A stretch of 64,000 nucleotides of DNA from NCBI GenBank assembly GCA_020619395.1, contig GCA_020619395.1_4860.1; one strand, 5' to 3'. Origin of the DNA: a phage. The translations under genes were made by a program, and so were the position numbers. Under the pieces are notes generated by a model. It did no database searches. It was not told the DNA's origin and was given only the letters and a program-made list of their open reading frames with translations. Shown here piece after piece: positions 10,882 to 35,206 of the stretch; the first letter of the stretch is position 1, and every line of letters starts with the position of its first letter.

Positions 10882-11769
10882 ATGAAAAACGATTTGCATC
10901 TTGCGTATAAAACCACATTCAACCACCCGCTGCATCTATCTTCCCCAGATTCAGTGCGTGCGCACCTTGCTGACAAAGTCAGACTGATTGCACAGATTCC
11001 TGGTGAGTGGCCAAAGGTTCGTGGTCGCTTCTTGACCGACAAGAAGAACTACACCGTAGAAAATACGTTTAAGATCCGTGATATGGTTGCAGAGGCCATC
11101 GTTATCTTTAACGGCGATGGTAACTCTCGTGGCGTGTTAGTCGACGGTAAGTATTTCTTCAGTGAAGGGATTTTGAACAACAGCGTCGATTTAGAACTGA
11201 TGTTTACACCGTTTGACGAACTTGAAGCAAAACCGATGGCGCGCCGTTGGTGGAGTCCGGACTATCTGGGCTCGTTCCCTTACTACTTTGTACTGGTACC
11301 TGCCGATACGGAAACGTATTTCGACACCGAACCGTACATCGATATCGAGGGATATAAAGAACTCGGCATCACCCGTTTAGCGGACATGATGGCGTATAGC
11401 TATAAGTTCGTGTGGGATAAAAAGCGTTCTGTCTGGTATGCGTTGACTGACGATTTTGAAATCACCAAACGTATTCGTAAGCCGTGGATGCAACACCTGG
11501 TTCAAACCCGATATGGGGATTACCCGGCGACAGAAGCGGATTTGAGTAAGCTGGTAAGCTTCCTCTTAACGAAGGTGGATTTAACGAAAGAAGAAGCAGA
11601 AGCTGTTTCTGAGATTCGTAGTCGTTCGGTAACGTTGGCCGATTTGAAACGCTTGAACGAAAGACACGCCGACCTGAACAAAATTTTAGCTGCCTATCAC
11701 GACCCGATGTTACTGGTGCCTGGCGCTAATGTAGACGAAGATCCTTTATTCGCCATTGATTATATTTAA
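10882..11769 (+). CDS. Hypothetical protein in Cys-peptide/rSAM cluster (295 aa)
   Basis: ATG with GGAG upstream. No recognisable motif; co-oriented and tightly spaced with the rSAM genes. Confidence 0.6.
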   Translation: MKNDLHLAYKTTFNHPLHLSSPDSVRAHLADKVRLIAQIPGEWPKVRGRFLTDKKNYTVENTFKIRDMVAEAIVIFNGDGNSRGVLVDGKYFFSEGILNNSVDLELMFTPFDELEAKPMARRWWSPDYLGSFPYYFVLVPADTETYFDTEPYIDIEGYKELGITRLADMMAYSYKFVWDKKRSVWYALTDDFEITKRIRKPWMQHLVQTRYGDYPATEADLSKLVSFLLTKVDLTKEEAEAVSEIRSRSVTLADLKRLNERHADLNKILAAYHDPMLLVPGANVDEDPLFAIDYI

Positions 11770-11791
11770 AAATATACTGGAGCAACCTGCA

Positions 11792-12706
11792 ATGACAGAT
11801 CAAGTAGAATCCAGGATCTCGTCTGAACTGTACGACAAACCGTCAATTCTGTCGGTTGTCGCAACTTCTAAGTGTAACTTAGACTGTAGCTTCTGTGGAG
11901 GGGCTTATTACATGGATAGAGAAGATACTTCTCGTGAGTTTCAACGCGAAGAGATTCTCTCGATTTTAGAGAAGAATCCGGATATCGGTGAGATTCATTG
12001 GACGGGCGGTGAGCCGCTGTTAGCGCAGCGTAAGATTGAAGACTTCGTGAACGAGTTGAAGGAGTCTCATCCGAACCTCCGTCATCACATGTACACCAAC
12101 GGTTTAAAGATGCGTAAATCACATCTGCCGTTGCTGAAACAGTTCGACCTTATCTTTGTGTCCATTGACGGCTACAAGAAGTCGGAACGTCCGTTTATGA
12201 ACTTTGTAAACGGTGGTAATCACGAAGCGCTGGAAGTGCTGTACGAGCTGGACAACTATTACACCTGGGGTGTGATGACGCGTGACCAGTTAGGTGATAA
12301 ACGCTGGTACGAAGATTTCATCGAGCTGCACCGAGCAATCTATCATTACCGTCCAGGTGGTGTGTCGTTGTTGTTTGATGCGATGATGCCGAAACCGTTA
12401 TCGCCAGACCACGTCATGAACTTCATGTACGGGTATTGGAAAATACTCGACAATATCGAACGCCTTAACATGCAGAACGATTCTGAATGTGGGCTCGCGA
12501 TCAGTAAAATGTTCGATACCGAGTGCAACACGTGCAGTGAAGTGCTGTGGCTTAACGCCGACGGTACGCAGGAGCAAATTCAGAACGCCCCAGAGATATT
12601 GGAAGTCGGCTGTAATCGCCTGGCGCGTTCTATCGGCGTTGATGCGTATAACTACATCAACCGTGTAATTTCTGCTAAGCGTAAACGGGCGGCGAACAAT
12701 GAGTAA
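11792..12706 (+). CDS. Radical SAM enzyme (304 aa)
   Basis: CNLDCSFCGG CxxxCxxC motif near N-terminus; additional C-terminal Cys cluster (ECNTCSE..VGC). Start moved to ATG 11792 (tracked 11756). Confidence 0.75.
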   Translation: MTDQVESRISSELYDKPSILSVVATSKCNLDCSFCGGAYYMDREDTSREFQREEILSILEKNPDIGEIHWTGGEPLLAQRKIEDFVNELKESHPNLRHHMYTNGLKMRKSHLPLLKQFDLIFVSIDGYKKSERPFMNFVNGGNHEALEVLYELDNYYTWGVMTRDQLGDKRWYEDFIELHRAIYHYRPGGVSLLFDAMMPKPLSPDHVMNFMYGYWKILDNIERLNMQNDSECGLAISKMFDTECNTCSEVLWLNADGTQEQIQNAPEILEVGCNRLARSIGVDAYNYINRVISAKRKRAANNE

Positions 12707-14027
12707 TAGCGAACAGCAAATCCAGTACACACCACGCACGTATCAGGTTGTGACTAACCTGTCATGTAACCTGGACTGCGAATACTGCTACGAGCGTAAA
12801 TATCCGCGTAACAACAAAGTAGCAGACGTGATTGATTTTATCCACGCTTGTTTCGAGCGCGATAAAGATATCCCGAACGTTGAAGTCATCATCGATATCA
12901 TCGGTGGTGAGCCGTTCATGCAGCCTAAACTTCTTTTGGCGGCCTTTGAAACCGCAGAGAAGTTATGCGCAGAACACAATCGCCCGTATATGTTCAGTAT
13001 CTCCACGAACGGTACGCTTCTGGACCGTCCGCTGAACAAAGAAATTATCGAGCGCTGGAAAGACAAACTGTCTATTGGGGTCTCCATCGATGGTTTACCT
13101 GAAGTCCATGACAAATATCGTATCTTTACCACGACGCGTGAAGGGTCGTACGAAGCTGCGGTACGCGGTTACAATTATCTGAAGAGTGTTGGCATCGCTG
13201 AACTGGGCGTAAAAGCGACGTTTACGATCGATACATTGCCGCACTATGCCGCCAGCATGAAATCGTTAATTGACATGTCCGGCGGTGGTACCATTTCTGG
13301 TAATGTAACGTACGAAGATATCCTGCCGCGCCATATGGCGTTGGATATCGCGAACCAGATGATGGACGTGATGGACTACTGGATTGAGAAGGGTCTGCAC
13401 ACCAACCCGCGTAACACGATTACACACATCATCCCGGATGGCCTGAACTTTATGGCAACTTGGGACCCGGATTGGCGTGACAAACTCTTACACGACGACT
13501 CTGTTCGTCTCGACCCAGAACGCCTGAAACCGTACTGCGGTACGTTGACGCACATGACCTGTCTCGGCTTTGATCGCAAGATTTACGGTTGTAACCGTTT
13601 CATGTCCACGGTAACTTCCCGCTCTGCTGTAGCGGAACTGGTCGGTCGTGAGTTTGTGAGTCTGGACGGTGGTAAGCTGTTAGAAGAGATTCAAACGCAG
13701 TACACCAACTACCCAGAAACCTGTTTAGGGTGTCCGATGAAACACAGCTGCGGTAGCTGCGCAGCGGCATCGTACGAAAACGGTGAAGGTACACTGGAAG
13801 ACCGTAAAGCGTATCACGCCGAGCGTCGTCAGTGTGGTTGGACTACTGCGAAGCTGATGGCGGCGGAATATTGGTATCAGAAAACTGGTACGACTCGCGC
13901 ATCAGATTTGCACGATAAATCCATGTGCTATTGTTCACGTTGTGTACGCCAACGTGCCGAAGCAGAAAAATTACAAAACGGAGCCCAGAATGAAGTCAAT
14001 ACTGATTCACAATTTTACGAAGCGTAA
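12699..14027 (+). CDS. Radical SAM enzyme with SPASM/twitch-like C-terminal Cys-rich domain (442 aa)
   Basis: CNLDCEYCYERK CxxxCxxC motif; C-terminal CLGCPMKHSCGSCAAAS..CGW..CYCSRC cluster typical of auxiliary Fe-S domains. Confidence 0.75.
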   Translation: MSNSEQQIQYTPRTYQVVTNLSCNLDCEYCYERKYPRNNKVADVIDFIHACFERDKDIPNVEVIIDIIGGEPFMQPKLLLAAFETAEKLCAEHNRPYMFSISTNGTLLDRPLNKEIIERWKDKLSIGVSIDGLPEVHDKYRIFTTTREGSYEAAVRGYNYLKSVGIAELGVKATFTIDTLPHYAASMKSLIDMSGGGTISGNVTYEDILPRHMALDIANQMMDVMDYWIEKGLHTNPRNTITHIIPDGLNFMATWDPDWRDKLLHDDSVRLDPERLKPYCGTLTHMTCLGFDRKIYGCNRFMSTVTSRSAVAELVGREFVSLDGGKLLEEIQTQYTNYPETCLGCPMKHSCGSCAAASYENGEGTLEDRKAYHAERRQCGWTTAKLMAAEYWYQKTGTTRASDLHDKSMCYCSRCVRQRAEAEKLQNGAQNEVNTDSQFYEA

Positions 14028-15217: not shown

Positions 15218-15258
15218 GGCCCTACCTCCCCGAAGGGAGGTAGGTACCTTTTATTTAT
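15218..15258. terminator. Bidirectional rho-independent terminator at convergent junction
   Basis: CCTACCTCCC-CGAA-GGGAGGTAGG hairpin flanked by A-run (left) and TTTTATTTATTT (right). Confidence 0.75.
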
Positions 15259-15284: not shown

Positions 15285-15812
15285 TTAAACGAATCCGTCC
15301 AGTTCACCGTTGGTGGTGCTCAGGTCAGTTTTAACGATTGGCTGCGTTACAGTATAAACTGCAAGGCTGGCAGGCTGGTATTTAATGTGGCCTTCTTTCA
15401 CCATAACAGTGATGATTTTCTCACCACTGTCGCCGTCCTCGCGTGAAATGGTGAGTTCAGACAATGCAAACGCATCTTCCGTTTTACCGGCGGCAATTAG
15501 ATCTGCGTTGACAAAAGCAAGCACTTCTTCATCGGTATCCCATTCTGCCTGGTCAGCGGTAACTGCTTTCGCACCGATGATGTTCAATGAATCGAGGCGG
15601 GTATAATGCAGCTCTTTCTCGCCAGTAAAGTTAGCGGATTCCGCGGTGGCAGTGATGGTGAGTTTGGAGTTGCGAGTGTCTCCAGAATCTGCTGGTGAAT
15701 AGTCAGCAACAGCGCCGAATGTAACGTCAGCAGAAGTTAACGGACTAGACAGTCCGCTGTTTGCAGCATTAAACAGCGCAACGAGTTGGTCTTTTGCAGA
15801 GATGACTGCCAT
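15285..15812 (-). CDS. Short member of fibre-module family (175 aa)
   Basis: N-terminal module (LVALFNAAN..RNSKLTITA..ELHYTRLDSL) plus C-terminal TNGELDGFV shared with C-type paralogs. Confidence 0.65.
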   Translation of the reverse strand: MAVISAKDQLVALFNAANSGLSSPLTSADVTFGAVADYSPADSGDTRNSKLTITATAESANFTGEKELHYTRLDSLNIIGAKAVTADQAEWDTDEEVLAFVNADLIAAGKTEDAFALSELTISREDGDSGEKIITVMVKEGHIKYQPASLAVYTVTQPIVKTDLSTTNGELDGFV

Positions 15813-15892
15813 GGTTGTTTCCTTATAGTAGGTTTGTGGTGCATACTAAATCGTTCTAAAAACAACATAGTGGGCTTAATATGACAGTAAAG

Positions 15893-15920: not shown

Positions 15921-15935
15921 ACTGAAAGGTACTCT

Positions 15936-16427
15936 ATGAAACGTCTATTTATCGTATTCGCGATTATAAACCTGTTGGCCGGTTGTGTTCAGTCGCCAAG
16001 CAACATAGGACAATTTAGCGCCACACCAGTAAAGAATCACGACTTGGTGATTTATACATGCACAGGGACGCAGGAGAAGTTTATAGACTACCGTCCGGTT
16101 CTGGACAATCTACAGATGATGCCGCGGTCAGTAACAGTAATGGATGTGGGTGCAAACTGGGTAGCAACGTGGGACGGTGGCAAACTAGAGTCACCGATGA
16201 TGTTTAAAGATACAATTGGCAAAATCGACGGGAATGTTAACACCACCACAGGTGAGCGTTATTACCGTATTAATAAAACCGTAAACGATAGCCCCACTTA
16301 CTCTTTTTCGGATGTGAACCCGTATACCGGCGAAGGTAAAGGGATGACATTCTTTCGCTGCAGCAGCGGGTTTATCGGTGAAGTTCCTACTCCGATTACG
16401 ATTGTTCCGTTAGAAGAAAATAAATAA
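15936..16427 (+). CDS. Lipoprotein (163 aa)
   Basis: Signal peptide MKRLFIVFAIINLLAGC with lipobox LAGC. Lone plus-strand gene between minus-strand genes, with its own terminator. Confidence 0.7.
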   Translation: MKRLFIVFAIINLLAGCVQSPSNIGQFSATPVKNHDLVIYTCTGTQEKFIDYRPVLDNLQMMPRSVTVMDVGANWVATWDGGKLESPMMFKDTIGKIDGNVNTTTGERYYRINKTVNDSPTYSFSDVNPYTGEGKGMTFFRCSSGFIGEVPTPITIVPLEENK

Positions 16428-16429
16428 TG

Positions 16430-16470
16430 CTTACCCACTCCCGTAAGGGGAGTGGGTAAGGGCTTTATTT
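16430..16470. terminator. Bidirectional terminator
   Basis: 13-bp stem CTTACCCACTCCC/GGGAGTGGGTAAG, loop GTAA, then GGCTTTATTT; A-rich on the other side. Confidence 0.7.
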
Positions 16471-16552: not shown

Positions 16553-17068
16553 TTAGATTTTAACTAGCTTGCTCCAATCGATGGGTTGTTGCTTAACCAC
16601 TTTAACGGTACCACGTGTCGGTGACCAGAAGGTGATATCAGGCTGGTTGCGTACGTCAACATGCAACCAGGTAATATCGCACTCGATAAAGTGAATAAAC
16701 GGAAACTCGTTAGGGTTCGCGGCAATATAGTCGTGTACTTTCTGCAACGGAGTATCAAGCATTGTTGCATCAAACGCATTACCGAATTTATGCATACTGC
16801 CTGATTCGGCGTACAGTTTGTTTGCACGAGTTTGCCAATCTCCACCCTTTGGTTTCTCTTGATTAATAAAGAACTGCAGGGTACGCAGACTACGCTGTTG
16901 CTGGGAACTGGTTAAAATCACCATCCGCCCAAAACGATTACGAATCTGTTGGAGCGAGATTAGCAGTAACGGATTAAGGAAACGAATAGCACCTTCACCG
17001 TATTTCGCGATGTACTCCTGCGGCATCAACTCTTTTAACGCGAAGTTGGCAGGATTCGGATGAAACAT
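16553..17068 (-). CDS. Peptidase M15-like (candidate L-Ala-D-Glu / D-Ala-D-Ala peptidase, endolysin-type)
   Basis: SMHKFGNAFD (H-x6-D) and WLHVDV (second His) resemble zinc-ligand motifs of M15/VanY peptidases. AAGGAG RBS. Confidence 0.5.
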   Translation of the reverse strand: MFHPNPANFALKELMPQEYIAKYGEGAIRFLNPLLLISLQQIRNRFGRMVILTSSQQQRSLRTLQFFINQEKPKGGDWQTRANKLYAESGSMHKFGNAFDATMLDTPLQKVHDYIAANPNEFPFIHFIECDITWLHVDVRNQPDITFWSPTRGTVKVVKQQPIDWSKLVKI

Positions 17069-17077: not shown

Positions 17078-17719
17078 TTAAGGGGCAGTCAGGAACGCAC
17101 GTTTGATATTCAAATACTGCACGTTTACCGGTTGCCCATTAGTAATGTCAACACGTTCGTGTTCAGGAATCGCTAACGTACGAGATGTTCTAAAGAACAG
17201 GTAGTTGCGATTATAGGACAACGTCTTTTCTACCGGCCGGCTATAAACCACCTTAGAGTTATCGTCTACATAGGACGGCCAACCAAACTCGTGAACGGCA
17301 TGGTAGAAGGACTTACGAATAAAGGTGTCAACGCCTAATGCCTCCATGATGCGTAAGAACATCAGGTCAGCGAATGTTTTGTCACATGCACGAGATAGAT
17401 TACCTTCGACAGTGTCAGGGTAAAAGCCTACCGATGAACGTTTCTGGTAAAACAAATCATGCACACAAGCGGCAGCGGCCCAAGGCCCATCCGGATGCAG
17501 GATAGGACGTAACGCTTCTGGAATGCTTGCCAGGTCCGTCACAAATCCTCTCGGTACCGTTACCCATAACGGGGTATCCGGATGCACACCTGCTAATGCT
17601 ACCATCGCATCCATTCCGGTCTGTTCACGATAGAGGCTGCGCAACGTAAACTCGAAATGGAAATCATCCGTGAGGATAAACCACGGCTTCTCTAACAACG
17701 TATACTTAAGTGCTTCCAT
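17078..17719 (-). CDS. DUF1353-like protein
   Basis: VPRGFVTDLASIP..AAACVHDLFY matches the DUF1353 signature as recalled. Confidence 0.5.
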   Translation of the reverse strand: MEALKYTLLEKPWFILTDDFHFEFTLRSLYREQTGMDAMVALAGVHPDTPLWVTVPRGFVTDLASIPEALRPILHPDGPWAAAACVHDLFYQKRSSVGFYPDTVEGNLSRACDKTFADLMFLRIMEALGVDTFIRKSFYHAVHEFGWPSYVDDNSKVVYSRPVEKTLSYNRNYLFFRTSRTLAIPEHERVDITNGQPVNVQYLNIKRAFLTAP

Positions 17720-17782
17720 ACTGACCTCACGTCATATAACGCACGAGCATCGTGAGGACCATTAATCCCAGTAAAATGGACA

Positions 17783-17935
17783 TTAAGCCTTTCGGCCAGT
17801 CGTCGTTGTCGTATTGCATGGCTTTACCCTCCGACAGAAGATCGCGCGTAATAGTTTGAAGAACCCAGAATCGTAATACGTTTCCGGAACGGTTTGTACT
17901 TCGGGGAACTTAGGCGGAGTTGGACGGTGGGTCAT
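17783..17935 (-). CDS. Small hypothetical protein (50 aa)
   Basis: ATG with AAGGAG 9 nt upstream; below ORF-track size cutoff. Followed by an 18-codon hydrophobic micro-ORF (17727-17783) overlapping via TAATG. Confidence 0.3.
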   Translation of the reverse strand: MTHRPTPPKFPEVQTVPETYYDSGFFKLLRAIFCRRVKPCNTTTTTGRKA

Positions 17936-18007: not shown

Positions 18008-18625
18008 TCATTTGCACATCCCCAACTTAGCCACGTAGTCTGGCATTTCCTGATAGACGCGGCCATACCAGCCGTAAGTAAACTCTTCGTTATCCTCACG
18101 CCCTTCACTGATTTCCGTGTAGTACGCAACCTGATGACAGGTTAAAGCGAACATCAGTCGATTCAGGCCCTCTTCCCCACGGGCTTTGATGAAGCCTTCT
18201 AACGCTGTTAACGTACGTGGCCCGATACCACCATCGGCATCGATATCATCGTATAGTTTACCCTGACGGTTTAATACGTTCAGAATACGTTGCAGGGACT
18301 TGATACAGTTACCGCGTCCTGCGTTGATGCCGAAATCAAACATTCGGTCAGCTAGCAGGACATTCATTTTCATAATCTGGTCTAAACGCATCCGCTGCCA
18401 CCAGAGCTTGTTGTAAATGTCTAACGCGATTTCTAAGCTCAGGTCACGCATATCCCCTTTATAGCCATATTCGCGCGCAGTGAGTTCGGTGACACCACGG
18501 TTCGTTGCTTTGCCCAAATCTTTCGGGTTATTAACGTAACCGGCTTCGATGTTTACTTTGGCACGAATAATGCCCTCTTTACTCCAACGATCGACCACGA
18601 TAACCTCCTGAGTTGATAGGGTCAT
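18008..18625 (-). CDS. GH108-like muramidase with peptidoglycan-binding domain (endolysin or virion lysozyme)
   Basis: EAGYVNNPKDLGKATNRGVT matches the GH108 EGGYVNDPxDxGGxTxxGIT signature; C-terminal DGGIGPRTLTAL region PG-binding-like. Start uncertain: ATG 18625, or GTG 18598 with AGGAGG 5 nt upstream. Confidence 0.6.
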   Translation of the reverse strand: MTLSTQEVIVVDRWSKEGIIRAKVNIEAGYVNNPKDLGKATNRGVTELTAREYGYKGDMRDLSLEIALDIYNKLWWQRMRLDQIMKMNVLLADRMFDFGINAGRGNCIKSLQRILNVLNRQGKLYDDIDADGGIGPRTLTALEGFIKARGEEGLNRLMFALTCHQVAYYTEISEGREDNEEFTYGWYGRVYQEMPDYVAKLGMCK

Positions 18626-18657
18626 AAAAAGAAAGCCTCTTCCCCGTGGGGAAGAGG
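18623..18657 (-). terminator. Hairpin with U-tract after 725-aa gene (leaky terminator or attenuator)
   Basis: CCTCTTCC..GGAAGAGG stem then CTTTCTTTTTAT on minus strand; overlaps the possible lysozyme start. Confidence 0.4.
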
Positions 18658-18703
18658 GCATGGGTTATCTTCAGGCTTTAAACCCGTCAAGTTCCTCGTT
18701 AAA

Positions 18704-20881
18704 TTACGATAACGGTATCGTTGGCCGCACCCACGGTTTAGGGGCAGATTTGGTATACGGATTACATTCCATCATTTTACCGAGATACGCATCGTAATAC
18801 ACGAAGCGATCGACATAGAACCTCTCCACCGGTGTACTACTGGTAGCCGATTTCACCCGGTTGCGTTCCACAGCGAGGCCAATCACCCCGGTAGGCGCGG
18901 GTTTTAGGGTGAACATTACCGCACGGTTGTAACGCCAAGTGTCGTGCACAATATCAAACTCCGATACACTGTGTGCCATGATACCAAACAATGTGGTGGC
19001 TGGTAAGTTGGCTACAGCATCGCCGTATGGTGTTCCCACCAAACCGCCGGGTATGTTTTGCTTTTTGAACAGCGTACCTGAAATAATCGTACCTAAGAAC
19101 TCCACAACTACAGGTTTGGTTGGGTCGGTGACTTTATCTATCCCATCCGCACTGGCCAATCGGTTGGCATCTAAATCTGCGAGGTAGTCGAGGAACTCTT
19201 GGTACTCGTCGGTGACATTCGGTTTCACCGTTCCGACGGATACCCAGTTGACGATACTTTTATTCCCACCGACGGCTTCGCCTGCCATCCCAGGGCGAGT
19301 CCATGACATCCCGTCTTCACGACCGTAGACATAGACCGGCGAGCCGGTAGCCGGGGTGTTCCATTGCTCGAACGCTGTATATCGTCCCGGCTGGCCCCAA
19401 TCGCCACCAGGACCGCCATAGTAGCGACTCTGGTAGCCGGTAAATTGTGCGACGACTAACTGGGTAGCACCGCCTTTGTCACGGGACCCAGCTAAGCCGT
19501 TACGGTTATTGGTGCCGCTGGGTACCGCCGCGCCTGGCCCGAGAGGCGCACCACCAGCTCCACCGATCTTGGTGGTGCTAAACGCATAGTAGTCGCCCCC
19601 ACCCCCACCTCCGGCGATGGTGCCGTAGTTTTCGATGGTGACTTTGCCGCGGAAGGCATCGGTAATGTGGATTGCGTCAGCTCCGTCTGCTGATGTGTTC
19701 GCAGGCAGAGAATAGACCATACCCGAACCACCACGACCAAGAATGGTTCCCCGGTTAACGAAGTTCCAAACCACCTCGCCAATTTGCGGCAATTCGTCGA
19801 TAACGAACGTCGGTTTCAGGTTGCTGTCGCGATAAACGAAAGCCCCCGCATCTACGGTCACGTTAACAAACAAACGCCCGCACGCCGCATGGTTGGTCAA
19901 CGTCGTGGCCCAGTAGCTGTCCGAAACTTGCGACGTAGTTGTGTAGTTCAGGTTAAGGGTTTGCTCGTTATCTTGATAGCGTGCCACATTCAACGTGGCA
20001 CTGCCCATGACTTTGTACGAACCCTCCACAGGTGCCAATTGCACTTGTCTTGGCCACTCGCCTGCCAGGTCCTCTACGGGAGCAATTTCGTTTACATCAA
20101 AAACACTCCGAATGCCGAGTGTCTCGATGGCCAGAGCATCATGCAGGCTACCGGTGAAATCATCCGGGACGTATGTGGTTTTGCCTGCATATGTCTCGAG
20201 TTTGTTACGTGAAAAGAACACATACTTCGTTCCAAACATCCCGCTCCCCGGTCTAGCGGTCAAAGCCACGACGCTGTTATACGCAGAGGTTTGGCCTATA
20301 TCCTCCGGGGACATCGGGGCGCTGACATCGACTTTATCAAGATCCACGATCCGTTTGGTTGCATTAGAGTAGAAGTTAATCCACTGCTGTTTATTCGCAG
20401 CCTTTAGCGTGAGAATGATGTTGGTAACAGTGTAGACGGTGTTGATATCCACGTCACCGTTTATCACATCTAGCGTTTGGCTGCCGTACCAGACAAGACT
20501 TGTCTGTTTCGCCTGGAACGTGATGCGCGCAGCATTGTTTGTCCAAGTGATAGGCAGGTCTTCAAAGTCGTCGGTTAAAAAGGTAATCCCCAGTAAAGTG
20601 TCTAAATGCGGCAACAGTTCGTGAATGGATGCACAAGTGGGAATGGCATCCAACTTAACCTTAGCGAAATAATCAGCAATATTTTGCTTCGTGACTTGGG
20701 CCGTAATTTGACCGTAATTTGAATACCCCGGACCCCCTGTCAGTGTGACGTCTAGGGTTTTTTCGTCACGATGCGCCACGGACACCAGGCGTACGTTAGC
20801 GGGGTCTACTGCTTTGGCGACCGCGTTTTTACGGTTGAGCGACCGAATCACGGTCGCCACTAAATCGGGAGTGTAGGACAT
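18704..20881 (-). CDS. Fibre-module family protein with Gly-rich region (725 aa), candidate receptor-binding protein
   Basis: N-terminal family module (RKNAVAKAVDPANV..YGQITAQV); AGGGGGGDYY..GGAGGAPLGPG Gly-rich block; C-terminal NPYTKSAPKPWVRP shared with 20896-22215. Confidence 0.65.
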   Translation of the reverse strand: MSYTPDLVATVIRSLNRKNAVAKAVDPANVRLVSVAHRDEKTLDVTLTGGPGYSNYGQITAQVTKQNIADYFAKVKLDAIPTCASIHELLPHLDTLLGITFLTDDFEDLPITWTNNAARITFQAKQTSLVWYGSQTLDVINGDVDINTVYTVTNIILTLKAANKQQWINFYSNATKRIVDLDKVDVSAPMSPEDIGQTSAYNSVVALTARPGSGMFGTKYVFFSRNKLETYAGKTTYVPDDFTGSLHDALAIETLGIRSVFDVNEIAPVEDLAGEWPRQVQLAPVEGSYKVMGSATLNVARYQDNEQTLNLNYTTTSQVSDSYWATTLTNHAACGRLFVNVTVDAGAFVYRDSNLKPTFVIDELPQIGEVVWNFVNRGTILGRGGSGMVYSLPANTSADGADAIHITDAFRGKVTIENYGTIAGGGGGGDYYAFSTTKIGGAGGAPLGPGAAVPSGTNNRNGLAGSRDKGGATQLVVAQFTGYQSRYYGGPGGDWGQPGRYTAFEQWNTPATGSPVYVYGREDGMSWTRPGMAGEAVGGNKSIVNWVSVGTVKPNVTDEYQEFLDYLADLDANRLASADGIDKVTDPTKPVVVEFLGTIISGTLFKKQNIPGGLVGTPYGDAVANLPATTLFGIMAHSVSEFDIVHDTWRYNRAVMFTLKPAPTGVIGLAVERNRVKSATSSTPVERFYVDRFVYYDAYLGKMMECNPYTKSAPKPWVRPTIPLS

Positions 20882-20895: not shown

Positions 20896-22215
20896 CTATA
20901 GCGGTGGATACCAAGGGACCGGGGCGGTTTTGCTATATGGACTGTAGACCATATAGCCGCCTTTGCTTGGGTCGTAATAGATGAAATAGTTACAGTAATT
21001 CGAGTAAATGCTCGTCATTTGTTTGGATTGGTATCCGTTACGGTATAGTCCCTGGTAAGTAATAGCTGATGTCGTGGTGGTGTAAGCAGTGTGGTACAGT
21101 ACCCGACGCCGGTTAGCAATACTTTCTTGGAACATTTCTTCGGTCGGAAACGCGTGTTGCATCAGCCGTCGAATACTCCCGGTACAGTATCGAGTGCCAT
21201 ACGGGGAACCCGTTAAATCATCCGCAGTTTCAGGCGATTCTGCCCGAGTCAACACGTACTCGTTTTGATACAACGTGACGCTCATCGAATTTGGGCTGGT
21301 TTCCCGGAAACTCATGTAACGCGCATAACGTTCGACGTCCTCTTCCTGCGCCAAATAGGCCACGTTATTTTTCGGACCAAAGTGCAAGAAGAACGGACGG
21401 CGGAGATTACCCATATCCTCAGGTGGCGTCAACTTCACGCAGTAATTGTACTCCCCACGCATATCAGGGTCTAAGCCTGGGTTGTTATTGCGTGTAGCGA
21501 CATACCCATAGAGGTCATACGGGTTATCAGTAGCAGCATTACCGATAGTGAACGGGATGCCCGACCATGCCGACAGCGCCGCGATGAACTGGGTCATGTA
21601 CGAGTTACTGTTTAGTCGCAGCGGGGTACCCATCGGGATATTGATTATCTGTTGGGTGTACATGCTCCAGTCGAGTCGATAGACCGTGCTGTAAACATCC
21701 ATGGGTTCCCAAGCTCCGGTTTCGGTGGTGTGGTACAAGTCGGCAAAGCTGGGCTCTTCACGAATAAAGCTAATAGGAATGTGACCCGTGAATGCGGGGT
21801 TATCCGATTTAATCGCCACCGTCCGATCGCCCGTTGCCACAGTGATCATTGCAAACTGGCTGTCAGGATACGTTAAATCGTCAGCAGTAAGCACCAGCCC
21901 ACAAGCTGCGGAAATCCGGTCGATGATGTCGCGGTAGGACGTCGCCCGATAAGGTACTTTAACCGGTACGCTGACGCCTTTAAAATACTGCGAAAGGTTT
22001 AAGCGGTCGTAGTAGATGTCCATCTTACCGCTGTAACCGCCACCCTGTAATCCGTTTACCACTATACGGCTGTTGCGGCCATCGCGCAAGGCATTGGTTA
22101 AAGGACCTTGTAATAACGCCACGTTGGTTGCGTTGAGTGGTTTCTTGAGCTGCGGGTTATCACGATTAATCTGATCCCAAACCAGCTGCATGACAGGTTT
22201 GTTATAGTTGATCAT
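20896..22215 (-). CDS. Fibre-module family protein (439 aa)
   Basis: N-terminus MINYNKPVMQLVWDQINRDNPQL..RNSRIVVNG..IYYDRLNLSQYF; C-terminal SPYSKTAPVPWYPPL. Confidence 0.65.
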   Translation of the reverse strand: MINYNKPVMQLVWDQINRDNPQLKKPLNATNVALLQGPLTNALRDGRNSRIVVNGLQGGGYSGKMDIYYDRLNLSQYFKGVSVPVKVPYRATSYRDIIDRISAACGLVLTADDLTYPDSQFAMITVATGDRTVAIKSDNPAFTGHIPISFIREEPSFADLYHTTETGAWEPMDVYSTVYRLDWSMYTQQIINIPMGTPLRLNSNSYMTQFIAALSAWSGIPFTIGNAATDNPYDLYGYVATRNNNPGLDPDMRGEYNYCVKLTPPEDMGNLRRPFFLHFGPKNNVAYLAQEEDVERYARYMSFRETSPNSMSVTLYQNEYVLTRAESPETADDLTGSPYGTRYCTGSIRRLMQHAFPTEEMFQESIANRRRVLYHTAYTTTTSAITYQGLYRNGYQSKQMTSIYSNYCNYFIYYDPSKGGYMVYSPYSKTAPVPWYPPL

Positions 22216-22225
22216 TGCAACGTCC

Positions 22226-22262
22226 TAAAAAAAGAAAATAGGCCCTTCAGGGCCTATTTTTA
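22226..22262. terminator. Bidirectional terminator
   Basis: TAGGCCC-TTCA-GGGCCTA hairpin flanked by A-run and TTTTT. Confidence 0.6.
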
Positions 22263-22289
22263 GCTGTTATGGTGAAGTACGCTATCCCT

Positions 22290-22382
22290 TTAACTCCAGC
22301 TGATTCGACCTGCGTGTTGGGGATTATCCCGCTGAATGAGCCGACACAACAGCTCAAGTGCAGTGGATGAGTAAAACCCCAT
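22290..22382 (-). pseudogene. 30-codon remnant of a C-type fibre-module gene
   Basis: Translates to MGFYSSTALELLCRLIQRDNPQHAGRISWS*, matching the N-termini of the C genes (MGLYSAPELELLCQQVVRDNPELAGRIS..). AGGAG RBS retained; stop after codon 30. Confidence 0.6.
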
Positions 22383-22393
22383 ATTAGCTCCTG

Positions 22394-23296
22394 TTAGCTA
22401 AGAACCAGTTCGATAACGTGGACTACCGACGCGCTATTGGTCGAAGAGGTGTACGATGGTGTGTCTGGTGAGTTGCTGCGATAGTACCAGGGGGTGGCGT
22501 TGTCATAACCGTTGGCAAACAATGTTGCGCTTGAATCGGTTGGACTACCGCCGGAGCGCGCCGGTAAGTCGCCAAAACGTCTTACGACGCCCGCGTAGCG
22601 GAACAAGCTTGCGAACGTGTTGTGCCACTCGCCATCTTGAAAATAACCACCGCTGCTTAGGTAGGTGCTGTGCCCATAACTGTAGTCTCCGAGTCGAGGC
22701 AAACGTACCACATACTCGTAACCGTCTTTATTAAATGTCCGACGCTGGTTAGTGGTAGCGACGCCCCGTGGCGGGAAACCGTAGTCATCTGTTCCCCAGG
22801 CCAGACCTTGCTGGTATTGTTCGTTCCACGTCGTCCCTAAACGGGTCACCGTGTCAGGAATGAACAGAATGCGTCCTTTGAAAACGAATTTATGGAACAA
22901 TGTTGGAGCTTGGTTCCAGGCATTAAAGCCAATTAAACCATTCAGCTCGGCATGGTTAAGAATAAATTCTTCGTTTGTCAGTGTGCCAAAGTAGCCACGA
23001 TGCCAATCGCCACGAATAAGTTCCTGTGGGCCGGGCCCTGTCATTGGAAAGTCGCCCTGTACAATCGGCAGCCCCATAACCTTTTCAGTGCCCTTTACCG
23101 CCACGATGCGATATTGATACGTTTTATACGCCTCGGTGGTCGTGTCCTCGTACGTCGTTGTGTTACCTGGTAGTGTTACAATAGGTTCCCCCGGTGCTAC
23201 TGGGTTAACACTTTGTCTGGGGTTGTCGTAACGATAGATTTCAATGGAATCTAAAGTCTGACCTGGCTGTTGTTTCCAGTTTAAGATAATCGACAT
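22394..23296 (-). CDS. Fibre-module paralog type A, triad 3 (300 aa)
   Basis: FN3-like N-terminus (TTYEDTTTEAYKTYQYRIVAV) and central GPGPQELIRGDWHRGYFG..ELF..HKFVFKGRILF domain. Confidence 0.7.
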   Translation of the reverse strand: MSIILNWKQQPGQTLDSIEIYRYDNPRQSVNPVAPGEPIVTLPGNTTTYEDTTTEAYKTYQYRIVAVKGTEKVMGLPIVQGDFPMTGPGPQELIRGDWHRGYFGTLTNEEFILNHAELNGLIGFNAWNQAPTLFHKFVFKGRILFIPDTVTRLGTTWNEQYQQGLAWGTDDYGFPPRGVATTNQRRTFNKDGYEYVVRLPRLGDYSYGHSTYLSSGGYFQDGEWHNTFASLFRYAGVVRRFGDLPARSGGSPTDSSATLFANGYDNATPWYYRSNSPDTPSYTSSTNSASVVHVIELVLS

Positions 23297-23299
23297 GTT

Positions 23300-24298
23300 T
23301 TACTCCACTAACTCGATAACGAATGCGTACAAACCGACCTTCTCAGCACTGTCAATTAACGTAACTTGGGAGAGGTTACGTTTCGACGTATTGGTTATGC
23401 TTGAATCGATAGGCGCAGACCCGCGAACCAGAACTAATCCCGATTCAGGATCACGTTCTTGGCACAAGAAACCTTTGCCTTGGTAAGCGCTACCGCTCCC
23501 ATAAATGGACGCTGGACTAATATTAGTCCAGTTAGGGAGCATTTGTTTGTTAGGGATACAATCTCCGAACGGATAAACAAAATCGTTATATTCGCAGCGA
23601 CCATATTCCAAGTCATCATGGTCTGCGTTTCGCAACGATTCATCCAATGTCATTACTGTCGGTTCGTCCCCGTCGGTTAAACCGCGCAGCAATCGCATCC
23701 GATAGGTGTCGCCTTGCCATTCAAACAACCCACTCTGGTCAACACCTGCCAAATCCCCACGTCCGTTATCAGGACCAAATCCATCAACACCGTACACAAG
23801 CCCCGCGTTATAAATGTCATTCCACGAGTAAAGTGTAGAGTTAAATCGTCCGCCGCTGTTCATCATGTAGTAAACTTTACCATGTCGATAAAACTTGTTC
23901 ATGATTAGCGTGCCCGTGCCCGATATCCCTGTTAATGCACGAAAGCCTGCAGGCAACGCGTCATAGGTCATCTGTTCTTCGAACGGCAACTGCCCCAGAA
24001 ACGCCAAGTCGTCAGTATCGGAATAGTTAATCTGGTCGACGCCACCCACACCACGACGGTTTTTAATGACAATGGATTTTTGTGGACTACCTACGGTACG
24101 GCCGTTAACAGTTACTGTTAAAAGATACCAGTAACGGGTGTTAAGAATAACGGTTTCGTCCGTCCATTCCGTTTCGCCATTACTTAAAGTTGCAATAGGG
24201 GCTGGTAATGCGGCTGTATTTATTTTAGCCGTGCCCCGATAAATGTTAACAATTGAACCTGCCGGATTTTCATTTTTCCAGCGTAGTGTGAATGCCAT
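23300..24298 (-). CDS. Fibre-module paralog type B, triad 3 (332 aa)
   Basis: MAFTLRWKNENPAGSIVNIYRG.. N-terminus; AAGGAG RBS; 3-nt gap to A gene. Confidence 0.7.
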   Translation of the reverse strand: MAFTLRWKNENPAGSIVNIYRGTAKINTAALPAPIATLSNGETEWTDETVILNTRYWYLLTVTVNGRTVGSPQKSIVIKNRRGVGGVDQINYSDTDDLAFLGQLPFEEQMTYDALPAGFRALTGISGTGTLIMNKFYRHGKVYYMMNSGGRFNSTLYSWNDIYNAGLVYGVDGFGPDNGRGDLAGVDQSGLFEWQGDTYRMRLLRGLTDGDEPTVMTLDESLRNADHDDLEYGRCEYNDFVYPFGDCIPNKQMLPNWTNISPASIYGSGSAYQGKGFLCQERDPESGLVLVRGSAPIDSSITNTSKRNLSQVTLIDSAEKVGLYAFVIELVE

Positions 24299-24308
24299 CT
24301 GTTACTCC

Positions 24309-25751
24309 TTAGAAGCCGTTCAACTCACCGTTCGCGGTTGCTAAATCTGTTTTAAGTGGAGGTTCTGCCTGAGTAGGCGGTAGTGGACGCGGTGCGTCGA
24401 CGTGTGGTTCAAGTACAACCATCGGCCTAACTGTACCTACGCTGTTCGACACTGTCGATAACGGCAGCGCAGTATCGACGTTTGGTTCACCCACCACAAT
24501 CGGGCTGATAGGTTCTTCCACCTGTTCCGCAGTTGTTGCTAGAGGTCTCGGCGCATCTGTTGTCGCAACCTCGACTGCAAGAGGGCGAATGCTATCAGGT
24601 TGTGGTGATGGTACATTAGGAATAACCCTAACGCGCCACACAACATCCCCTTCCACATCAGCTAAAGATAAGACGATGTCGTCCTTATTGATTTCCTCTA
24701 AAACAGGCCACCAGTAAGTGGTATCTGTAAGGGTTACCCATTCAACTGAGCCACCGCGCATATTGCAACGTTGTACTTTAACAGGGTTACCCCCGGTTAA
24801 CAGTTGTTGCGTGAAGAAGACGGTGGTTCTGGTTAACGTGGTGTCATTTGCCCAGTCGCCGCCCGTAGAACCGTCACCGAGTTGTGAAATAAGCCACAAC
24901 GGTGTGGCCTTTGATAAATCAGGGCTAACCGGAACGGAGACGCGGTAATAATGCGTCTTGTTATTCTCAGTTTTCGTGACAATCAAAGCCTGGTCAACAG
25001 GTTCGATACCGTCTGGATACGGACCAGTGTCACCTGTACCGAAAATGGCACCCGCTTGATAAAGGGCCGTCCAGGTTGCTGTTAACGTTCCGGTAGTCGG
25101 TAGATAAACAATCTTACCATCCTTGAAAAATTTCAACCATTCGAAAGTCATTTTCGTTGGGGCAACATCAGGACGAATTAGGTTGTTTAGTTCAGCAAAG
25201 GTAAATAACTCTTGCTGAGAAACGTGGCCGAAGTATCCGTTTGTGCTGTCCCCTGCCAACAAATATTTATTGCCTGGCCCAGAATCTGGATAGTAGCCCA
25301 CGGCTTCATTCAAATAATCGACCGGGATATAGCCGCGATAGCATACGCTATTATACGCGGTTAAATTAATACGTGTTGGCGTTGCCAGCGATTTGATAGG
25401 CGCGTCTACCGACTGTACACTGCTATCAGATAACCAAACACCGTATAAATCGCGTAGAGCTGGGAGAAGATCCCGCACGGTCTTGGCCGTTTGTGGTACG
25501 TAGACGCGCGGAGCTATTTTAAATAGATCTGATAATGTTAAACGGTCGTAATAAACCGTGCACTCCCCAGAGAAACCTTTACCGGGTTTACCTACCAACG
25601 TAATTACCGTGTTACGACCATTCTTAGTGGTCTCGGCAGGAATACCCCTCACCCCAATCGAATCAGCGCTGATTCTTCCTGCGAGTTCAGGGTTATCCCT
25701 TACGACTTGTTGGCAGAGCAATTCCAGTTCGGGTGCGCTATACAATCCCAT
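24309..25751 (-). CDS. Fibre-module paralog type C, triad 3 (480 aa)
   Basis: N-terminal family module (VRDNPELAG..GRNTVITLVGKPGKGF..VYYDRLTLSDLF), central GPG..GYFG..ELF domain, DAPRPL repeats, C-terminal TANGELNGF. Confidence 0.7.
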   Translation of the reverse strand: MGLYSAPELELLCQQVVRDNPELAGRISADSIGVRGIPAETTKNGRNTVITLVGKPGKGFSGECTVYYDRLTLSDLFKIAPRVYVPQTAKTVRDLLPALRDLYGVWLSDSSVQSVDAPIKSLATPTRINLTAYNSVCYRGYIPVDYLNEAVGYYPDSGPGNKYLLAGDSTNGYFGHVSQQELFTFAELNNLIRPDVAPTKMTFEWLKFFKDGKIVYLPTTGTLTATWTALYQAGAIFGTGDTGPYPDGIEPVDQALIVTKTENNKTHYYRVSVPVSPDLSKATPLWLISQLGDGSTGGDWANDTTLTRTTVFFTQQLLTGGNPVKVQRCNMRGGSVEWVTLTDTTYWWPVLEEINKDDIVLSLADVEGDVVWRVRVIPNVPSPQPDSIRPLAVEVATTDAPRPLATTAEQVEEPISPIVVGEPNVDTALPLSTVSNSVGTVRPMVVLEPHVDAPRPLPPTQAEPPLKTDLATANGELNGF

Positions 25752-25762
25752 GAAGTCTCCTG

Positions 25763-26662
25763 TTAAGGCAGAACGAGTTCAAGTACCGCAATGGAGCGTA
25801 TTGTAGTGGTACCGTAGTTACTCCATGCCGGCGACTCAGGGTAAGGTGGACGGTTGTACCACTGACTGGACGTGTTATTCATAGCCGCAAAGAATGCAGA
25901 TTGTTGGGCAGTAACCGAATCGATTGAACCGACCGGAAGGTCGTCAAAGCGCGGAAACTGCCCACTGTAGTTGTACAGGCGCGCGAAGGTGTTAAACCAC
26001 TCACCGTCGAGATACAACTCAGTGTTACCGCTTCCAACGTAAGACGTCCAGTATTTGTAGTCGAACAAATACGGCAAGCGCACCACGTATTCGTAACCGT
26101 TCTTCGCCACCGTGCGGCGTTGGTTACGTGCAGTAGCCCAGCCCGGTACATATCCATTGCCATCCTGGCCGTACATCATCCCCTGGTTATAAATGAACTG
26201 CGGGCTAGCGTTTATTATCGAGTTATCGGACATAAACAGAATACGGTTTTTGTAAATGAATTTATGCCAGGCACCAACGGCGGAACTGAACATATTCACC
26301 ACGAGGCCGTTCAGTTCCGTGTTAGTGAATAACTCTGCTGGCGTTACTGTTCCAAAGTATCCAGCGTGCCAGTCGCCGTATAACAGTTTCTGGGGGCCAG
26401 GCCCGGTGTCTAAAAAGAACCCTTGGGCGGTAGGGGTGTTGAAGACACGCTCACCGTCTTTAACCGCAGCTATCCAATAACGGTAAGTGGTGTTGTTTTC
26501 CACAGCGTTGTCTTCGTACGATGTAGCGTCACCCGGAAGGGTTGCCAGAGGCGTTCCCGGTGCATTAACATCAATTGTGGCGTTGCCCGGCGTCTTGCGA
26601 TAGATTTCGATGTTATCGAGCGCCTGTGGCTTCCGTTGTGCAAAGTGTAATGTAATAGGCAT
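25763..26662 (-). CDS. Fibre-module paralog type A, triad 2 (299 aa)
   Basis: Start set to ATG 26662 (MPITLHF..), 2 nt after upstream stop; tracked 26698 start overlaps. About 60% identity to the other A copies in the central domain. Confidence 0.7.
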   Translation of the reverse strand: MPITLHFAQRKPQALDNIEIYRKTPGNATIDVNAPGTPLATLPGDATSYEDNAVENNTTYRYWIAAVKDGERVFNTPTAQGFFLDTGPGPQKLLYGDWHAGYFGTVTPAELFTNTELNGLVVNMFSSAVGAWHKFIYKNRILFMSDNSIINASPQFIYNQGMMYGQDGNGYVPGWATARNQRRTVAKNGYEYVVRLPYLFDYKYWTSYVGSGNTELYLDGEWFNTFARLYNYSGQFPRFDDLPVGSIDSVTAQQSAFFAAMNNTSSQWYNRPPYPESPAWSNYGTTTIRSIAVLELVLP

Positions 26663-26664
26663 GA

Positions 26665-27654
26665 TTAATCCTCGATAAGCTCGATTACTGGAATCCAAAT
26701 ACCGCCCACGGTCGCACCAGGGACATGTTGTATACGCTGGAGGTTATCCACGGTATCAGTGGAATCCGCCGCCGCCAATCCGCGCGTCAGCCCCAACTTA
26801 CGTTCTGGGTCAAACTCCTGACAATGCGCCCCACGGCCTGCCACCAGCGATCCATTTCCGAATATGCTGGAGTTCGACCACTTTATCAGGGACATCACTT
26901 TTTTCTTTTCTGGGAACCAGCTACTTATCCCATAGATGAGTCGGTTGTATTCGCTATCGGCAGTATACGGTGACGCGTCATGGAGTTTACCGTCCCACTG
27001 TGCATCGAGTGTCATGACCGGGCTTTCACTGTCGAGTGTTAAACCGCGCAGCAGGCGCATCCGATAGCGGTCACCCAACCACGTAAACTCCCCAGCCTGG
27101 TCAACGTCAGGTAAATCGCCATGACCGCCTTCCGGACCAGGTCCCGCCACACCGTACAGCAAACCCGCGTTATAAATCGCATCACGGCTATACAGCGTGT
27201 TGCCGTTCACACGAAGACCACTAAACAGATACAGAATTTTACCGTCTAGCTGGAACTTCATCAAGCCCGGCTTAACAGTTGGGTCGTATCCAGAAAGGGC
27301 CACAAACCCTGGCGGATAATCACCCGCGCTAGGTAATTCACCGTACGCCACGTACCCGTAATACGCAAAGCGGTCATCACCGTACTGTGGAGCCACGATG
27401 CCGATACCGCGACGGTTCTGAATTAGAATTGATTTCTGCGGACTGAACAGTGTCCGACTTCCCACTGTCACGGTGGTCATGTAGTAATACGTTGTCCCCA
27501 GTATCGCTGTTCGGTCAGTATACTCAGTTTCCCCGTTAGTGAACGTTGCCAGGGGTTCAGGTAATGCCGTACGCACCAGAGGTTTGGTGTCGCGGTACAG
27601 CTTCACGGTCGAAGCCCCAGGGTTATTGTTCGTCCAACGAATTGTAAAAGCCAT
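26665..27654 (-). CDS. Fibre-module paralog type B, triad 2 (329 aa)
   Basis: MAFTIRWTNNNPGASTVKLYRD.. homologous to the other B copies. Confidence 0.7.
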   Translation of the reverse strand: MAFTIRWTNNNPGASTVKLYRDTKPLVRTALPEPLATFTNGETEYTDRTAILGTTYYYMTTVTVGSRTLFSPQKSILIQNRRGIGIVAPQYGDDRFAYYGYVAYGELPSAGDYPPGFVALSGYDPTVKPGLMKFQLDGKILYLFSGLRVNGNTLYSRDAIYNAGLLYGVAGPGPEGGHGDLPDVDQAGEFTWLGDRYRMRLLRGLTLDSESPVMTLDAQWDGKLHDASPYTADSEYNRLIYGISSWFPEKKKVMSLIKWSNSSIFGNGSLVAGRGAHCQEFDPERKLGLTRGLAAADSTDTVDNLQRIQHVPGATVGGIWIPVIELIED

Positions 27655-27666
27655 TGTCGTTACCTC

Positions 27667-29163: not shown

Positions 29164-29176
29164 GGTATTTACTCCA

Positions 29177-30100: not shown

Positions 30101-30109
30101 GACTGCCCC

Positions 30110-31108: not shown

Positions 31109-31119
31109 AGATGATACCT

Positions 31120-32532: not shown

Positions 32533-32545
32533 AGGGACTCCGCAT

Positions 32546-32576
32546 CGCCAAAAGAGGGGGGCTCCGAAGAGCCCCT
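32546..32576 (-). terminator. Hairpin terminator between short-paralog genes and triad 1
   Basis: Minus-strand GGGGCTC-TTCG-GAGCCCC followed by CCTCTTTTGG. Confidence 0.45.
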
Positions 32577-32580
32577 ACAC

Positions 32581-33408: not shown

Positions 33409-33411
33409 CAA

Positions 33412-34299: not shown

Positions 34300-34309
34300 T
34301 CGCTAATTC

Positions 34310-35149: not shown

Positions 35150-35167
35150 AATAGCCTCCTCGGCCAA

Positions 35168-35206
35168 AAAAGAAAGGAGTAGCCAGGAGGAGGATTTCCT
35201 CCTCCC
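35168..35206 (-). terminator. Hairpin terminator-like element
   Basis: GGAGGAGG-ATTT-CCTCCTCC stem-loop; U-run begins 9 nt downstream on minus strand. Confidence 0.35.

Follow-up and report, generated by a model that had tools for sequence, protein, structure and literature searches.

The lipoprotein gene and its product

The DNA analysed here is a stretch of 64,000 nucleotides (nt) from phage contig GCA_020619395.1_4860.1, hereafter the window (64 kb), which carries at 15936-16427 on the plus strand a gene for a lipoprotein of 163 amino acids (aa). The product defines a family of lipoproteins that is conserved within its clade, restricted to phages and not part of the virion, and which is predicted to reside at the outer membrane as a soluble barrel encoded by a late-type transcription unit of its own. 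The elements of this unit are as follows.

15842-15845, minus strand: TATG element (CATA on the plus strand), 30 nt before the start of the divergent gp160-like gene (15285-15812)
15880-15885, plus strand: TATGAC element, 50 nt before the lipoprotein start, with a predicted +1 at the G at 15883
15925-15929, plus strand: ribosome-binding site AAAGG, 6 nt 5' of the ATG, by direct reading of the sequence
15936-16427, plus strand: lipoprotein gene, 163 codons and a stop; phrog_9559; product 95% identical in amino acids to that of SPN3US and 100% to that of SPLA1a
15936-15986, plus strand: signal peptide (residues 1-16: MKR, hydrophobic core, LAG) and Cys17 codon (15984-15986)
16014-16367, plus strand: predicted mature globular domain, residues ~27-144, an all-beta barrel with invariant C42 and C142
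16368-16424, plus strand: variable C-terminal tail, residues 145-163
16430-16470, both strands: bidirectional terminator-like hairpin, with a 13-bp stem and 5-nt loop (16430-16460) and T-rich tails on both strands

The stretch is a piece of a Seoulvirus genome, SPN3US-like and related to phiKZ; Seoulvirus phages are 240-kb, phiKZ-related jumbo phages of the Chimalliviridae. Over the 2.5 kb around the lipoprotein gene, identity is 95-99% to about 35 Seoulvirus genomes, including those of the Salmonella phages SPLA1a, SPFM, 1252 and SPN3US, two E. coli phages and one Proteus phage. The open reading frame (ORF) is the orthologue of SPN3US_0159 (gp159; RefSeq ACQ60_gp107), and such orthologues are labelled 'hypothetical protein' in all records inspected. 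Virion mass-spectrometry tables for SPN3US list gp154, gp155, gp157, gp158 and gp160, and gp159 is absent from them; the SPN3US_0159-type lipoprotein is a non-virion protein. In the annotated genome of SPLA1a, which is 99% identical, 67 features are recorded over 48.8 kb, and none but this gene lies on its strand. The initial annotation had described it as the only plus-strand gene in a 48-kb minus-strand region. All 66 other SPLA1a features do lie on the opposite strand, but the gene is located at the edge of that block rather than inside it, given that a 15-kb plus-strand block stops at 15203 and a single minus-strand gene (15285-15812) lies between. An ORF at 38860-39621 on the plus strand was considered as a second plus-strand gene and rejected, being unannotated in SPLA1a, where small opposite-strand genes fill the region.

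The 163-aa product begins MKRLFIVFAIINLLAGC, and its N-terminus as read from the ORF is MKRLFIVFAIINLLAGCVQ. It is laid out as MKR-LFIVFAIINL-LAG-C17-V18, the lipobox L-A-G-C occupying residues 14-17 and the only hydrophobic segment residues 1-19. The lipobox is present in 14 of 14 diverse homologues, with an invariant Cys17, so that the gene's original description as encoding a 163-aa lipoprotein with lipobox LAGC holds. Under the avoidance rule of the enterobacterial Lol pathway, Asp at position +2 blocks sorting to the outer membrane. Since the +2 residue is Val here, and Asp is found at this position in none of the 14 homologues, outer-membrane sorting is predicted. A rule-based lipobox scan of all ORFs of at least 35 aa in the window left the lipoprotein gene as the sole credible candidate, the other two matches being antisense ORFs within a 725-aa gene, and the Pfam model LPAM_1 matched the protein weakly (E 0.18). 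The gene product is thus predicted to be a bacterial-type lipoprotein destined for the outer membrane.

Modelling with AlphaFold2 (AF2) from 12 sequences gave a mean predicted local distance difference test score (pLDDT) of 81, with ten-residue block means of 80-96 over residues 31-140, whereas a run with 5 sequences was unusable (pLDDT 38). In the model, about ten strands form a soluble all-beta domain, with a tether of low confidence (residues 19-23) in front of it. C42 falls within the second strand, a long one, and C142 within the final strand, so that an intramolecular C42-C142 disulfide closing the barrel is likely. The C-terminal tail, with a pLDDT below 50 for residues 146-163, is hydrophilic, is absent or different in the homologues P0012, P0014, P0015 and P0018, and is probably disordered. 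Foldseek searches gave no match in the PDB at E <= 0.001 and, against viral models, returned family members along with a small number of weakly matching phage proteins from outside the family, of which some carry a lipoprotein label. The resemblances at the level of fold class are generic, to calycin-like or YceI-like barrels, nitrobindin and the lipid-binding BT_2261.

Members of this fold class are mostly binders of small ligands, and one could imagine that the protein is a ligand-binding periplasmic barrel with some other function in host takeover, related neither to the exclusion of other phages nor to lysis. It might for instance bind lipid, lipopolysaccharide or a cell-wall fragment, or modulate envelope stress signalling or flagellar function. 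The invariant residues R108, Y110 and R111 would suggest an anionic ligand site, and no family assignment constrains the function. On the other hand, nothing speaks positively for a particular ligand, and the consistent placement of the gene among adhesin and fibre genes (see below) would stay unexplained. Such a role is possible, if doubtful.

With respect to conservation, ratios of nonsynonymous to synonymous substitution rates (dN/dS) of 0.13-0.22 relative to SPN3US, SEGD1 and SaP7, together with homologues down to ~25-30% identity that keep the lipobox, indicate that the gene is real and constrained. It also has the highest dN of the 13 neighbourhood genes compared (0.025-0.047 vs at most 0.023) and the lowest nucleotide identity (92-94%); fastest evolution among its neighbours is what one would expect of an interface protein. 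In an alignment of 14 diverse members, with 25-91% identity to the window protein, 11 residues are invariant: C17, C42, G72, R108, Y110, R111, S125, G132, G134, G136 and C142. The PHROGs family phrog_9559 is one of unknown function, scans of Pfam, NCBIfam and PADLOC gave no family match, and a sequence-profile search of the PDB matched only a lipoprotein signal peptide, that of TrwH. The label 'DUF2846' carried by the pEa_SNUABM_43 homologue was not reproduced by Pfam at E <= 1 and was discarded.

Among 5.8 billion sequences, a cluster search found 10 clusters with a single-sequence query and 18 with a profile query, and HMMER retrieved 14 representatives from 1.84 billion proteins; these two protein-database searches gave only phage or unnamed metagenomic sequences. 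By tblastn the lipoprotein was found in 66 phage records, at one copy per record, from Seoulvirus, from the Erwinia phages of Erskinevirus, Machinavirus and Wellingtonvirus, and from E. coli phage Goslar at 32% identity. A pattern scan, which reaches close relatives only, added five jumbo-phage contigs in IMG/VR and had 0 matches in 185,579 bacterial and archaeal species genomes. As judged from these sequence searches, the family is confined to jumbo phages of Enterobacterales. Some SPFM records behave differently: in LR535903-LR535908, LR535911-LR535913 and LR535917 (SPFM5-10, 12, 14, 15 and 20) the matches to the region, where listed, are broken into 7-40 short pieces. For SPFM1, 5, 8, 10, 15 and 20, the alignments of the lipoprotein 'homologues' (P0005-P0009) cover no more than 12-36% of the query. 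These fragmented records look like indel-ridden assemblies and not true variants.

The gene had also been regarded as a possible moron. It does possess a conserved TATGAC element and a hairpin, as would a moron with its own promoter and terminator, but its composition is ordinary (G+C fraction 0.41-0.47 across the gene vs 0.41-0.50 in the immediate flanks) and its occurrence in close relatives is anything but sporadic. All 35 Seoulvirus-type records and the genera of Erwinia phages have the lipoprotein gene in the same place, and the alignment of eight phages from four genera indicates vertical conservation. On the grounds of composition and conservation, the moron idea was dropped.

Transcription signals

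The gp160-like gene and the lipoprotein gene diverge from a shared intergenic region. In an alignment of this region from the same eight phages of four genera, only two islands outside the start-codon regions are invariant, namely CATA at 15842-15845 and TATGAC at 15880-15885. Late promoters of phiKZ consist of 5'-TATG-3', with the G as +1, and are read by the phage non-virion RNA polymerase and not by the host enzyme (PMC4666361). TATGAC is a candidate late-type promoter for the lipoprotein gene. The extended motif TTAATATG[AC][CT] has exactly two copies in the window, the second of which (38715-38724, minus strand) lies upstream of the first of the paralog-B structural genes. Since gp160 is among the most abundant virion proteins of SPN3US, a late-type promoter would be expected for its gene, which supports both TATG elements as late-type promoters, and the lipoprotein gene appears to share the late promoter class of gp160. 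A sigma-70 promoter was considered and rejected, as the scan was at chance level with no good plus-strand site, and phiKZ-type phages use their own polymerases. Thus, the promoter initially attributed to the gene is retained only in another form, with no sigma-70 site but with a TATGAC element that is invariant in 8 of 8 aligned phages and resembles the phiKZ late promoter.

The terminator attributed to the gene is readily recognized as the 13-bp-stem hairpin right after the stop codon, with a folding free energy of -26.7 kcal/mol vs -14.4 +/- 2.8 in shuffled sequences (z = -4.45, for 16430-16460). The hairpin is common to the lipoprotein gene and the convergent M15-like peptidase gene (16553-17068, minus strand), and one is present 3' of the lipoprotein gene in all eight lineages inspected. 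In distant relatives the lipoprotein gene is co-oriented with structural genes: in the metagenomic contig L009 it follows a structural gene by 13 nt as the last gene of the operon, and in Goslar a TATG is found in the 44-nt spacer that precedes it, after the tail fibre and fibre-assembly genes. Taken together, the regulatory signals point to middle or late expression of the lipoprotein gene.

A separate motif, CAGATA[GT]AT[AG]TTA[CT], occurs on the minus strand of the window at 40053-40066, 44146-44159, 51585-51598, 58161-58174 and 59861-59874. These sites are intergenic, 5' of small non-structural genes and often just past a terminator hairpin, and the motif probably serves this group of phages as its early promoter element, for the virion RNA polymerase. 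It would fit the early element of phiKZ, which has been described as 'well-conserved extended' (PMC4666361). No such early-type motif is present upstream of the lipoprotein gene.

Neighbouring genes and alternative roles in lysis or hydrolase inhibition

The lipoprotein gene is surrounded by minus-strand genes, as listed below with the names of their SPN3US counterparts.

15285-15812, minus strand: gp160-like, DUF7941; paralog family B; abundant head protein, >300 copies per capsid
16553-17068, minus strand: gp158, M15-like peptidase, 171 aa; PHROG label 'endolysin', weak Pfam Peptidase_M15_3 match
17078-17719, minus strand: gp157, DUF1353
17727-17819, minus strand: 30-aa ORF with a single transmembrane domain (TMD), sequence MQYDNDDWPKGLMSILLGLMVLTMLVRYMT, between the GH108 endolysin and DUF1353 genes
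18008-18661, minus strand: gp156, endolysin with GH108 and PG_binding_3; called non-virion in SPN3US
18704-20881, minus strand: gp155, 725 aa, with N-terminal DUF7941 and a GP38 adhesin domain (GP38 Pfam E 6e-18)
20896-38658, minus strand: paralog-B array, ~17 tandem paralogues of 265-500 aa

The initial annotation placed the gene beside an adhesin and beside fibre modules. A GP38 domain is indeed encoded in gp155, but 2.3 kb away, with three genes and the 30-aa ORF in between, and the array of paralogues exists but corresponds to paralog family B of SPN3US, which is associated with the head. In SPN3US, gp155, at normal levels, and the proteins of paralog family B are retained in tailless particles, so that both gp155 and the array would be head-associated. 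The adhesin-type GP38 domain of gp155 thus appears to be head-borne and may be relevant to flagellum-dependent adsorption. In the domain scan, DUF7941 was found in gp155 and gp160, the other array members lying outside the scan, and in relatives DUF7941 N-termini are fused to DUF285, to a region with a faint LRR_5 match or to non-contractile-sheath TIM-barrel domains, as if DUF7941 were a common anchoring domain for variable binding modules.

The divergent gp160-like gene is the one neighbour that the lipoprotein gene has in all eight aligned phages. In Machinavirus the endolysin/DUF1353 block is found on the opposite side of the lipoprotein gene, and the M15 gene is not beside it in Erskinevirus, Machinavirus and Goslar. 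Immediately upstream of the lipoprotein gene, Goslar has the gp090 tail fibre gene (Phage_tail_fib and Gly_rich_2) and a fibre-assembly gene. In the metagenomic relative L007 the gene follows one for a 1375-aa 'tail protein', and in another, L008, it is flanked by genes for DUF7941 proteins of 604 and 572 aa, the latter with DUF285, with a further DUF7941 protein of 1478 aa and a faint LRR_5 match encoded further upstream. In every lineage inspected, the lipoprotein gene lies among DUF7941, adhesin- or fibre-type genes, and the proposed link to host-recognition genes therefore extends beyond this phage, to Goslar, L007 and L008.

Two further features were observed on the other side of the gp160-like gene. 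Between its end and the end of the plus-strand block is a bidirectional terminator-like hairpin with a perfect 10-bp stem (15221-15244). The plus-strand block itself includes two adjoining radical-SAM genes (11756-14027; 316 and 442 aa), after which come two small genes, and the radical-SAM pair is kept beside the locus wherever the flanks were seen, in Seoulvirus, Asesino, Machinavirus, Wellington and L009.

The hydrolase genes next to the lipoprotein gene call for attention as well. The gp158 of SPN3US is a low-abundance virion protein that is missing from tailless particles, and may therefore be a tail-associated wall-degrading enzyme rather than a lysis endolysin. The 30-aa single-TMD ORF may encode a small holin-like or lysis-regulating membrane peptide; the remaining phages inspected have ORFs of 30-44 aa at the same relative position (for example, Asesino gp172, pEa_SNUABM_43_00169, Wellington gp174 and ChrisDB gp179).

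Given this setting, the lipoprotein could be the outer-membrane part of the lysis machinery, either an o-spanin or another factor disrupting the outer membrane. It is a predicted outer-membrane lipoprotein with late-type regulatory signals, its gene ends a cluster that holds the GH108 endolysin, the single-TMD ORF and the M15-like peptidase, and the closest genome has no annotated spanin or holin. However, no co-oriented partner, adjacent or embedded, was found in the window or in the eight aligned phages, the gene being monocistronic and on the opposite strand; the only plus-strand ORF embedded in it, at 16058-16207 (49 aa), has no obvious hydrophobic stretch. The protein lacks a C-terminal TMD and so is not a unimolecular spanin of the T1 gp11 type, and it is a confidently folded barrel with a probable disulfide instead of a short, proline-rich, extended polypeptide.

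Moreover, a better pair is present elsewhere in the genome. A search for lipobox ORFs over ~239 kb of SPLA1a, nearly the whole genome, gave only one other credible lipoprotein, at 191466-191945, which starts MKLFLVAILVLLLTGC... and has a proline-rich mature N-terminus. It belongs to the following pair.

SPLA1a OR413578.1 190947-191945 (L013:40948-41946), outside the window: SPN3US_0204/0205 pair

SPN3US_0204, of 169 aa, has a single TMD, a segment resembling a coiled coil and a C-terminus rich in proline; its gene lies 10 nt before that of SPN3US_0205, a proline-rich protein of 159 aa with lipobox LLTGC whose gene is followed by a terminator. When the SPN3US_0205-type lipoprotein, the only member of the pair searched, was used in tblastn, it was found in the same phages plus CR5, Derbicus and Phobos, a set that includes Seoulvirus and Erwinia jumbo phages. 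It is plausible that SPN3US_0204/0205 are an unannotated, separated i-spanin/o-spanin pair, with by far the better architectural fit. With no partner, no C-terminal TMD and a better pair elsewhere, the alternative raised at the outset, that the protein is an o-spanin with an overlooked i-spanin, is disfavored. The lipoprotein is unlikely to be a spanin, and a part for it in lysis generally seems highly improbable.

A different relationship to the hydrolases could be that the lipoprotein is an outer-membrane-anchored periplasmic binder or inhibitor of a peptidoglycan hydrolase, with an architecture like that of MliC/PliC. Either the phage's own wall-degrading enzymes would be restrained until lysis, or the virion-borne wall enzyme of later phages would be neutralized, following the logic of T4 Spackle, and in both cases the effect would be independent of the receptor. 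E. coli MliC shows the same arrangement, its lipobox Cys being followed by a Y-x-C in the first part of the barrel and by another Cys close to the C-terminus, and hhalign pairs IYTC of the lipoprotein with EYQC of E. coli MliC. In Seoulvirus and L009 the gene is convergent with that of the virion-associated, M15-like gp158 and near the GH108 endolysin gene, and a conserved phage enzyme or the cell wall as target would explain why the lipoprotein is conserved irrespective of fibre type. Against this, none of the 14 members matches Pfam MliC (PF09864), even at E <= 1, and the hhalign match to E. coli MliC has a probability of 38% over 36 columns, covering only the signal peptide up to the Y-x-C. 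The inhibitory loop motifs of MliC, SxSGAxY and YxxxTKG, are in no row of the 14-member alignment, whereas SASGARY is visible in the E. coli MliC sequence, and the adjacency to M15 is lost in the three lineages named above (Machinavirus, Erskinevirus and Goslar). Hydrolase inhibition is thus an unlikely function for the barrel.

One may also think of a new, clade-specific periplasmic inhibitor, anchored to the outer membrane and combining an MliC-like architecture with the logic of T4 Spackle, aimed at the virion-borne hydrolase or the tail tip of incoming giant phages, an idea that we consider improbable. If true, it would amount to receptor-independent superinfection exclusion among the nucleus-forming jumbo phages of Enterobacterales. 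In a variant of this idea the barrel would target the periplasmic flagellar machinery and stop the rotation needed by the flagellum-dependent SPN3US.

A possible role in exclusion and comparison with known systems

We tentatively consider that the lipoprotein serves to exclude later phages and/or to protect progeny, a role that is possible though well short of probable. The exclusion idea put forward in the initial annotation is still the most economical single reading, given the localisation and the persistent adhesin- and fibre-gene setting. As comparative footprinting and the precedent of phiKZ suggest, the phage non-virion RNA polymerase would start at TATGAC (+1 at ~15883) and stop at the hairpin at 16430-16460. 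The precursor would then, on strong sequence grounds, be exported, lipidated and cut at Cys17, and Lol would carry the lipoprotein to the inner leaflet of the outer membrane. From the AF2 model and the invariant cysteines, the mature form would consist of a short flexible tether and a soluble beta-barrel of ~117 residues, with the C42-C142 disulfide, facing the periplasm. The last step, which we infer only from the localisation, the non-virion status and the recurrent adhesin- and fibre-gene surroundings, is that the barrel would bind some component of the envelope, whereupon phage particles would no longer find productive targets in the infected cell or its debris. Later-arriving phages would be excluded and/or progeny already released would be protected; both roles have been described for T5 Llp. 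The target of the barrel is probably conserved across Enterobacterales, rather than being a variable primary receptor.

Several observations weigh against an exclusion role. The lipoprotein has no similarity to Llp or to known exclusion families in Pfam, NCBIfam, PADLOC and the PDB, although no search was directed at Cor. Exclusion genes of the classical kind act early, whereas the regulatory signals seen here point to the late rather than the early type and in L009 the gene ends a structural operon. In contrast to receptor-matched blockers, the lipoprotein is kept although the fibre genes next to it are unrelated (of GP38 type or P1 S type, or lacking). Flagella are reported as the receptor of SPN3US, and a periplasmic lipoprotein could not mask them directly. 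Genes for cell-wall hydrolases (M15-like and GH108) also adjoin, and a lysis- or wall-related role is equally compatible with the position of the gene. Finally, the gene does not behave as a moron.

If the lipoprotein proved to be protective, it would be, as far as the literature searched shows, the first envelope-level exclusion factor for the giant phages of the SPN3US/Goslar type; literature searches on SPN3US gp159, on an SPN3US lipoprotein or spanin and on a Goslar lipoprotein found nothing relevant. It would also be a simple determinant of resistance that can be transferred, which matters for phage cocktails directed at Salmonella and Erwinia. Regardless of function, annotation gains a lipoprotein family that is conserved, restricted to phages and provided with a confident fold model. 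The family can in addition be taken off the list of spanin candidates, SPN3US_0204/0205 being the more likely pair in phages whose closest genome has none annotated. Since phage lipoproteins of unknown role are common, a specialist would not be surprised by the finding: phage envelope lipoproteins are a known category, to which the present protein adds an uncharacterised variant of modest novelty.

Compared with known systems, the lipoprotein resembles an o-spanin of the lambda Rz1 type in being destined for the outer membrane and in being encoded near an endolysin gene, but it is a folded barrel without a partner. Like the MliC/PliC proteins (E. coli MliC, Salmonella PliC and Brucella PhiA), which are characterized by an eight-stranded beta-barrel, it has a barrel, of about ten strands in the AF2 model, but its core is ~25 residues longer. 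With T4 Spackle, which inhibits the tail lysozyme gp5 and acts in superinfection exclusion, it may have in common the logic alone, that of a periplasmic phage protein neutralizing a virion-borne hydrolase independently of the receptor; the two proteins are otherwise unrelated, Spackle being soluble, helical and made early.

The likeness to T5 Llp lies in the gene being a separate unit, oriented opposite to its structural and host-recognition neighbours, and in the product being non-virion. The lipoprotein has neither a sequence nor a fold match to Llp, which is present in the PDB, so that the null result of the PDB search includes it. The mature lipoprotein is a beta-barrel of ~147 aa, whereas mature Llp has ~61 aa, and in the window its gene is not directly beside a proven receptor-binding gene. 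Blockers of the Llp type change with the receptor-binding protein, in contrast to the lipoprotein, which is kept across unrelated fibre genes. With regard to timing, T5 llp is an early gene, but Llp is also said to shield progeny against receptor present in debris, a role that would be compatible with late expression. As for the T5 region itself, the title of a published paper states that the T5 and BF23 regions lack homology.

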